Below are positions 34,535-35,146 of a DNA stretch of 64,000 nt, piece after piece. Origin of the DNA: Rickettsiales bacterium UBA2645 (lineage in GTDB: Bacteria > Pseudomonadota > Alphaproteobacteria > Rickettsiales > UBA1997). The notes under the pieces were generated by a model. The model saw nothing but the letters and a program-made list of their open reading frames with translations, searched no databases and was not told the origin of the DNA. How positions within the stretch are numbered: position 1 is the stretch's first letter; each line of letters begins with the position of its first letter. Location of the stretch: positions 15,651-79,650 of the forward strand of contig DENL01000031.1 in the NCBI GenBank assembly GCA_002359655.1, read 5' to 3'. The translations under genes and the position numbers were made by a program.

Positions 34535-35146
34535 CTAAACCTCATAGAAATAAGCTGTAGATTCCCCCCAGCTGAAATTATACTTCTTGCTACCAAAACT
34601 TTTAAAAGCCTTGTCTTTCAAAGATCTAATTGTGGTGACAATTTTTGTTTTTGGTTTTAACTCACATAGAAATTTTGCTTCTAAAAGCTCAAATAATTCA
34701 CGATCTTTAAAAGGGTGATTCATGAAAATGAAATCCGCCGAGCTTAAATCAACATCAAAAATATTTTTATGCAGAAATTCTATTTCACGATTTAAATCGT
34801 GATTGATTATCTCTGGCTTAATATTGTTATTGAAATTTTCTTTCACCTCACAAGCCTTATTATACAAGCCTTCGAGCAACTCAACACCGACTGTTTTTTT
34901 GAAATCAAACAATAAATGTGACAACATTACAATTCTTCCAGTGCCAGATCCAACGTCAAAAAACACACCATCTTTTTTAGGATCTGCTCTGATAACAATT
35001 TCTCTCCAAGTTTCAAAAGGTAATTCACCGTAGAGTAAATCATCTTTGTTTTCTAAGTCACGGCGCGCTGCATGAGAAATTGAGTAGCCATCAATATCAT
35101 CATATAAAATGCTGAATATCTTAGCCGCAAGATCGGGATTTAGCAT
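34535..35146 (-). CDS. DOT1-like SAM-dependent methyltransferase (compact, 203 aa)
   Basis: LLYGELPFETW...VFFDVGSGTGRIVM...VGVELLE...FIFMNHPF...FSWGESTAYFYEV parallels DOT1L motifs YGETSF, FVDLGSGVGQVV, YGVE, IFVNNFAF and VSWTGKPVSYY. This comparison is from memory. Confidence 0.55.
   Translation of the reverse strand: MLNPDLAAKIFSILYDDIDGYSISHAARRDLENKDDLLYGELPFETWREIVIRADPKKDGVFFDVGSGTGRIVMLSHLLFDFKKTVGVELLEGLYNKACEVKENFNNNIKPEIINHDLNREIEFLHKNIFDVDLSSADFIFMNHPFKDRELFELLEAKFLCELKPKTKIVTTIRSLKDKAFKSFGSKKYNFSWGESTAYFYEV

Follow-up and report, generated by a model that had tools for sequence, protein, structure and literature searches.

Bacterial proteins resembling DOT1 have until now been treated as effectors that Legionella and other amoeba-associated bacteria direct at their hosts. 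Eukaryotic DOT1 itself has been proposed to descend from such bacterial effectors, with Aravind and colleagues tracing it to a methylase effector of intracellular bacteria (PMC3417536). DOT1-like genes are conserved in all Legionella species and fall in a tree with genes from Berkiella, Amoebophilus, Dependentiae, giant viruses and protists (PMC10117894). The Legionella pneumophila protein LpDot1 (lpp3025) lacks the nucleosome-binding loop and helix of human DOT1L and has alanine at the position of F131; it is inactive on histones, methylates nuclear RNA-processing proteins, notably SFPQ at K518, and influences infection (10.64898/2026.01.11.698932). In archaea, aKMT4 is a DOT1-type core without recognition domains that methylates the chromatin proteins Cren7 and Sul7d (PMC4639711), and in chlamydiae the enzyme cpnSET methylates Hc1 (Murata et al. 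2007, as reviewed in PMC3980110). Here we describe a DOT1-like gene in a 64,000-nt stretch of DNA from Rickettsiales bacterium UBA2645 (GCA_002359655.1, contig DENL01000031.1, positions 15,651 to 79,650 of the forward strand), the whole of which is called the window. The gene (34535-35146, minus strand) encodes a 203-aa protein that Pfam, a PDB search and the predicted fold identify as a putative DOT1-family protein-lysine methyltransferase consisting of the catalytic core only. A first reading of this DNA, referred to below as the original prediction, had noticed the likeness to DOT1 and raised the idea of an exported, histone-directed effector. The assignment to the DOT1 family is upheld and the protein may be an effector, but it is unlikely to act on histones, and a recent origin from eukaryotes finds no support. 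A DOT1-fold virulence factor, presented as a secreted effector of a type IV secretion system (T4SS), has a precedent in LpDot1, which the original prediction did not cite.

Profile searches place the protein in the DOT1 family specifically, rather than among generic small-molecule or RNA methyltransferases. It matches the Pfam DOT1 model (PF08123) over residues 35-179 with 55.5 bits (gathering score 23; E 7e-15), whereas generic methyltransferase models stayed under their cut-offs. The archaeal aKMT4-type equivalog model of NCBIfam (NF041081) gave 40.8 bits, below its cut-off of 200. In the PDB, the best match of the single sequence was 9ne1, deposited as a "bacterial DOT1L methyl-transferase" (E 1e-23, 87 bits, residues 7-201), followed by archaeal aKMT and then by DOT1L and Dot1p. 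A profile of 25 orthologues again found 9ne1 (E 7e-36), with aKMT at 1e-11 and yeast Dot1 and human DOT1L at 4e-11 to 4e-10. The entry 9ne1 is L. pneumophila LpDot1, since the loop sequences RDAIEYVYGE and INSSTL given in the preprint on that protein are found in the aligned chain. All homologues listed by the clade-profile and family searches carry PF08123.

The residues expected of a DOT1 active site are present. D64, G66, G68, E89 and N143 correspond to D161, G163, G165, E186 and N241 of human DOT1L (1nw3 numbering); among the 25 orthologues the first four are invariant and N143 is at least 90% conserved. Motif I reads D64-x-G66-x-G68-x-G70, a YGE sequence occupies residues 39-41, N143 lies inside an NHPFK motif and W193 inside an FSWG hairpin, while the position of DOT1L F131 is occupied by Lys34. 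Five motif pairings with DOT1L had been put forward in the original prediction. Four of them recur residue for residue in the HMMER alignment of the window protein to human DOT1L (LLYGELPF/EVYGETSF, FDVGSGTGR/VDLGSGVGQ, GVE/GVE and FMNHPF/FVNNFAF), whereas the fifth, the FSWG hairpin, falls outside that alignment; the hairpin does align to LpDot1, where sWG is conserved, and is covered at the level of the fold in comparison with DOT1. The enzyme is acidic, with an isoelectric point of 5.5 and a net charge of -6. The gene is predicted to encode an intact S-adenosylmethionine (SAM)-dependent lysine methyltransferase of the DOT1/KMT4 family, cut down to its catalytic core.

An AlphaFold2 model built on the 25 orthologues (pLDDT 91.6, pTM 0.89) has a class I methyltransferase fold with the N-terminal helices and C-terminal beta-hairpin of the DOT1 type, and Foldseek placed 9ne1 first among its matches (TM 0.82). 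This was followed by Sulfolobus aKMT, a Salinibacter methyltransferase, yeast Dot1 on the nucleosome (TMq 0.74) and many DOT1L entries at about 0.7. In the model a helix at residues 4-15 begins the fold and a strand at 194-202 ends the chain, leaving no disordered terminus and no extension at either end. Two absences named in the original prediction are visible here: the chain stops at residue 203, right after the hairpin, with none of the nucleosome-binding extensions, and the residues where a signal peptide would lie (4-15) are the first helix of the fold. Loop 273-286, helix 319-331 and the basic DNA-binding region, which serve DOT1L in nucleosome binding, have no equivalent in the 203-aa protein. 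A basic stretch at residues 164-188 was considered as a nuclear-localisation signal and rejected, as its residues lie in strands of the modelled fold.

Compared with the described systems, the window protein is most like LpDot1. Both are bacterial catalytic-core DOT1-like enzymes of about 200-230 aa with the N-terminal helices, YGE, DxGxGxG, the Glu of GVE, the catalytic Asn and the sWG hairpin, and both are without the nucleosome-binding loop and helix and without an F131 equivalent. They differ in that identity is about 32% in the fold alignment, the two fall in separate clades (SH-aLRT support 99), and the gate loop is INSSTL in LpDot1 but NHPFK in the window protein. The bearers also differ, one belonging to the Legionellales and the other to the alphaproteobacteria, and a Legionella-like homologue is solitary, among genes with no Pfam match, whereas the window gene sits in a tight operon with pepF and the gene for a Lys-tailed DNA-binding protein. 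The Sulfolobus islandicus enzyme aKMT/aKMT4 (5fa8, 5fad, 5jwj) shares the DOT1-type core without substrate-recognition domains and is the second-best fold match (TMt 0.78-0.82); it is archaeal, is about 24% identical and is without the N-terminal helices and the C-terminal FSWG hairpin region that the window protein, LpDot1 and DOT1 have. It acts on its own cell's chromatin proteins and on other nucleic-acid-related proteins, and by analogy may serve as the working model for the window protein. Eukaryotic DOT1 and DOT1L (1nw3, 1u2z, 7k6p) share the Pfam family, the fold (TMq 0.70-0.74) and the SAM-binding and catalytic residues; here identity falls to 15-21%, and the window protein differs in having no nucleosome-, ubiquitin- or DNA-binding elements, Lys in place of F131, and an acidic rather than a basic surface.

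Relatives of the protein are numerous. A HMMER pass over 1.84 billion representatives returned 1,967 at E <= 1e-3 and 578 at E <= 1e-10, and a profile of the clade matches about 1,400 proteins at E <= 1e-10. The 18 nearest genomic loci (57-70% full-length identity) come from freshwater metagenome-assembled genomes (MAGs) labelled Rickettsiales, Alphaproteobacteria or Pelagibacterales, some of them evidently mislabelled. Trees without an assigned root were built with FastTree (154 sequences) and IQ-TREE (98 sequences), with clade labels resting on few organism names for the nearest outgroups. They place the window protein in a bacterial clade (SH-aLRT 99) composed of its own family and of proteins whose sources, where names are available, are Rickettsiales, Alphaproteobacteria or Pseudomonadota MAGs. 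Across the split lie a protist clade (support 98) that holds Cantina marsupialis and Tetraparma gracilis, and an LpDot1-like clade (support 97). The latter was identified by querying clade proteins against the PDB, and its members score 142 bits to 9ne1 against the 87 bits of the window protein. The window protein is not nested among the short DOT1 proteins of protists, and the phylogeny that the original prediction had called for to detect gene transfer from eukaryotes gives no support for a recent one. The gene appears, from these trees, to belong to a separate alphaproteobacterial clade of bacterial DOT1-like proteins; proteins of this kind were already known, and it is the clade that is unreported.

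This clade also carries a motif of its own. Its motif IV/gate-loop signature is F-I-F-M-N-H-P-F-K, with the Pro present in 100% and the His in 95%, whereas the protist, Legionella-like and other bacterial clades have N-[SA]-T-C-F at this position and the LpDot1-like consensus is N-A-T-C/A-F. The gate loop is one of two proposed substrate gates in LpDot1, so a different substrate is likely for the window protein. A second point of difference lies at the N-terminus, where the LpDot1-like clade has forms of 230-260 aa and the window protein has no extension. Most members of that clade (P0143, P0166, P0162, P0172 and P0175) are of this length and start with a hydrophobic, membrane-helix-like segment that is missing from both the window clade and the protist clade.

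The gene lies in a housekeeping context that is kept across its family. Directly upstream is the gene for a 590-aa, pepF-like oligoendopeptidase of the M3 family (35152-36924, minus strand), and directly downstream that for a small DNA-binding protein of the CsoR family (PF02583; 103 aa; 34215-34526, minus strand). Direct reading of the sequence gives a 5-nt spacer from the pepF stop to the DOT1 start and an 8-nt spacer from DOT1 to the start of the CsoR-like gene, the same lengths as had been stated before. Further upstream runs a co-directional series of housekeeping genes (36928-40607, minus strand), which are cysK-like (36928-37941), rlmD-like (37944-39026) and murJ (39033-40607). The order murJ-rlmD-(cysK)-pepF-DOT1 is kept in all 18 related genome loci, in several metagenome loci and in a 954-kb contig, and pepF adjoins DOT1 in every family locus that extends upstream, with the exception of L029 (from the metagenome scan, 57% identical, no pepF upstream). 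The pepF stop and DOT1 start overlap in several loci and, together with the short spacers, this suggests co-transcription and translational coupling.

Sequence divergence agrees with this conservation of gene order. The pace of divergence of DOT1 is close to that of rlmD and hda and exceeds that of pepF and murJ, and the ratio of nonsynonymous to synonymous substitutions (dN/dS) in unsaturated pairs is 0.10-0.12 for DOT1, 0.02-0.05 for pepF, 0.05-0.07 for murJ and 0.06-0.16 for rlmD. The DOT1-like gene is, as judged from these comparisons, vertically inherited and under purifying selection. The original prediction had itself counted the housekeeping run as evidence against an effector, and that argument has become stronger with the synteny in 18 of 18 loci, the overlapping stop and start codons, the dN/dS of about 0.1 and the Lys-tailed DNA-binding protein encoded downstream. 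The gene is cleanly missing at two loci, L107 (1229-3297) and L108 (1232-3297), where the order is murJ-rlmD-pepF-csoR-hda-gatC and pepF abuts the csoR-like gene, and it is therefore dispensable or movable. In a tandem arrangement at L012 (5944-7236), a DOT1-like paralogue forms a second copy (6625-7236; Pfam DOT1 65 bits) in which NYHIRK replaces NHPFK. The pepF-DOT1 pair is retained at L022 although DOT1 is there only 42% identical, and at this locus the gene for a 914-aa ankyrin-repeat protein (4596-7340) is convergent on DOT1, which hints at a eukaryote-associated lifestyle of that lineage. Distant members of the clade are solitary in varied contexts, among them pntB-DOT1-efp and a position near virD4; in the former, at L019 (3597-6285), the spacers are 10-15 nt.

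The gene that follows DOT1 indicates concrete candidate substrates. In the window, the CsoR-like protein begins with a Lys-rich tail, MVKKISKVAAPKIQKEAK. Its domain is without the Cys/His/Cys metal ligands of the family, having Leu/Val, Tyr and Ser at those positions, and the protein is probably not a metal sensor; the basal homologues P0344, P0342 and in part P0340 retain the ligands. Tail length ranges from about 0 to 55 residues among close relatives (alignment A4), with 18-22 residues in the window, L003 and L004 and 40-55 in L002, L006, P0334 and P0341 of the same sub-clade, and the shortest CsoR tails seen are those of L107 and L108, where no DOT1 stands between pepF and csoR. In a sister sub-clade (L009, L013, L014, L016, L026, L027) the gene after DOT1 instead encodes a 97-aa protein with a similar tail (about 25% Lys) and a CopG/ribbon-helix-helix (RHH) domain, so that two unrelated DNA-binding domains, CsoR (PF02583) and CopG/RHH (PF12441), sit behind similar Lys-rich tails. 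At least 11 Lys in any 30 residues were found in six of 238 non-overlapping open reading frames (ORFs) from loci L001-L023, and all six lie immediately after DOT1; L026 and L027 contribute two further Lys-rich genes in that place. A second candidate is the sigma factor RpoD (50823-53198, minus strand), the sole strongly Lys-rich product among the window's 67 ORFs. It carries, before region 1.1, an N-terminal extension of about 125 residues (52823-53198) made of K/A/V/P repeats of the KKAVKK type.

The reading that leads among those we considered, at somewhat less than an even chance, is that of an intracellular protein-lysine methyltransferase that modifies Lys-rich tails on DNA-binding proteins of the same cell. 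The enzyme would work inside the bacterium, and its substrates would be Lys/Ala/Val-rich, histone-H1-like tails, with the adjacent CsoR-like protein here, the RHH protein in the sister sub-clade and possibly the RpoD tail as targets; methylation might tune the DNA binding of the tailed proteins or shield their tails from proteolysis. This endogenous role is favoured because of the tight operon with a gene for a cytoplasmic peptidase, the purifying selection, the compact chain with no terminal extension, the acidity of the enzyme, the pattern of neighbours, and the precedents of aKMT4 and of cpnSET with Hc1. The latter pair offers a functional analogy, in that a bacterial lysine methyltransferase of a "eukaryotic histone" family acts on its cell's own Lys-rich, H1-like DNA-binding protein. 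It differs in that cpnSET has a SET fold rather than the Rossmann fold of DOT1, the genes of cpnSET and Hc1/Hc2 are not adjacent, and its activity was demonstrated by experiment, whereas enzyme and tail are paired here from sequence. A broader proposal, that the DOT1-like enzyme and the Lys-tailed DNA-binding proteins, possibly with the RpoD tail, make up a bacterial writer-plus-tail module in a freshwater Rickettsiales-like family, is tentative and on balance doubtful. If this is so, proteins of transcription or of the nucleoid would carry histone-tail-like extensions that are methylated by a DOT1-type enzyme. Such a module would parallel, in bacteria, the pair of aKMT4 and Cren7, and it might show something of the work of DOT1 in the time before its recruitment to nucleosomes by eukaryotes.

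Several observations weigh against an endogenous role on Lys-rich tails. The association between DOT1 and Lys-rich tails was noticed post hoc, and each neighbour type, CsoR or RHH, forms one clade on the pepF tree, so the association amounts to at most two events, and an ancestral tail could reduce them to one. A Lys-rich neighbour is missing from many members of the family and from every distant member of the clade. In the window itself the CsoR-like tail, with 7 Lys in 22 residues, does not stand out from the Lys distribution of the window. Among 80 metagenome loci, Lys-rich neighbours occur only in the window's own family (L026, L027), with the exception of one convergent basic ORF on a TARA contig (L098), and the pairing is thus no general trait of bacterial DOT1-like genes. 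Furthermore, the closest characterised relative, LpDot1, is a virulence factor acting on host proteins, the DOT1-like family is enriched in host-associated bacteria (PMC10117894, PMC3417536), and the genome carries a T4SS. A housekeeping placement is compatible with effectors in reduced genomes and does not exclude such a role, which weakens the argument from gene context.

These last points lead to the explanation that the protein is an effector like LpDot1, exported through an rvh-type T4SS into a protist host or a competing cell and methylating non-histone proteins there, which we regard as a close second in probability, if less likely than not. LpDot1 is the best solved relative by sequence and by fold, and it methylates SFPQ K518 and other nuclear RNA-processing proteins, with an effect on infection; short DOT1-like proteins cluster in host-associated bacteria, giant viruses and protists, T4SS genes lie within the window, one distant clade member stands beside the ankyrin-repeat gene at L022 and another near virD4, and the gene is dispensable, as its absence from L107 and L108 indicates. 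LpDot1 is itself encoded by a conserved core gene and has no long C-terminal tail, so neither conservation nor compactness is incompatible with export. Against this, the window protein falls outside the LpDot1 clade, with the lower score to 9ne1 given above, and its gate motif is NHPFK where the other clades have N-[SA]-T-C-F. Its gene is packed behind that of a cytoplasmic peptidase, even overlapping it in relatives, whereas the Legionella-like homologue stands alone; dN/dS is low; and no disordered terminus is present that could hold a signal. No methyltransferase is mentioned in a survey that covers over two dozen rvh effectors from Rickettsiales MAGs, and rvh is thought to serve basal Rickettsiales in killing congeners rather than in parasitism (PMC11077975), so that a T4SS does not imply eukaryotic targets. 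Export and an endogenous role on Lys-rich tails would in any case be mutually compatible, as the analogy with cpnSET shows.

Other bacterial targets, such as ribosomal or translation proteins (compare aKMT and L11), would leave the Lys-tailed neighbour a coincidence. Archaeal aKMT4 has broad specificity and its PDB entry describes it as a putative L11 methyltransferase, the gene of one clade member is flanked by pntB and efp, and operon context and purifying selection fit such an endogenous enzyme equally. Across the loci, however, there is no recurrent link to ribosomal or translation genes, and the pattern of Lys-tailed neighbours is left unexplained, which makes this version unlikely. Methylation of RNA or of a small molecule, with no protein substrate, is more improbable again. 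In some sources homologues are called "predicted RNA methylase" or "precorrin-6B methylase 2", the Salinibacter structure 5bxy, an "RNA methyltransferase", ranks in the middle of the fold matches, and the upstream neighbour rlmD encodes an rRNA methyltransferase, but the names are automatic annotations, the specific family match is to DOT1 with generic methyltransferase models under their thresholds, and all characterised members of the family (DOT1, LpDot1 and aKMT4) methylate protein lysines. The strongest version of the original prediction would be a nucleomodulin that methylates lysine 79 of host histone H3 (H3K79) or nucleosomes, and we consider this very improbable. The family membership and the conserved catalytic Asn and hairpin Trp agree with it, but the nucleosome-binding loop, the C-terminal helix and the basic DNA-binding region have no equivalents, Lys34 stands in place of F131 and the surface is acidic. 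The idea is further contradicted by LpDot1, the nearest characterised relative, which has the same truncations and does not methylate histones, and a histone role is accordingly unsupported.

The case adds to the known bacterial DOT1-like proteins a large, unreported alphaproteobacterial clade in which the gene behaves as a conserved operon gene. If the tails are methylated, an enzyme of the DOT1 type would be seen to modify DNA-binding proteins of the bacterium that makes it; if the protein is exported, the Rickettsiales rvh system would gain its first candidate effector that is a methyltransferase. In both cases, H3K79 methylation should stay out of the annotation.

In scans for promoter and terminator consensus sequences, sites were no more numerous than in shuffled sequence. 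A freshwater metatranscriptome assembly (run X4) spans the region, and its contigs cover convergent genes uniformly and about as deeply as the flanks, so DNA carry-over is possible. At one further locus, L028 (4735-5298), a CopG/BrnA-like antitoxin gene without a Lys tail is followed by a small gene resembling a BrnT-type toxin; this antitoxin seems to represent the usual version of the RHH domain, which bears a Lys-rich tail beside DOT1 in L009, L013, L014 and L016. The bacterium was correctly taken to bear a T4SS, as the window contains a fragment of a VirB4-type P-loop protein gene (1-891, plus strand), a gene for a large VirB6-like protein (806-4120, plus strand) and one for a VirB2/TrbC pilin (61938-62297, minus strand). 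The pilin gene is solitary, about 58 kb from the VirB4 and VirB6 genes, and the T4SS genes are thus dispersed in the window as they are in Rickettsiales rvh systems.

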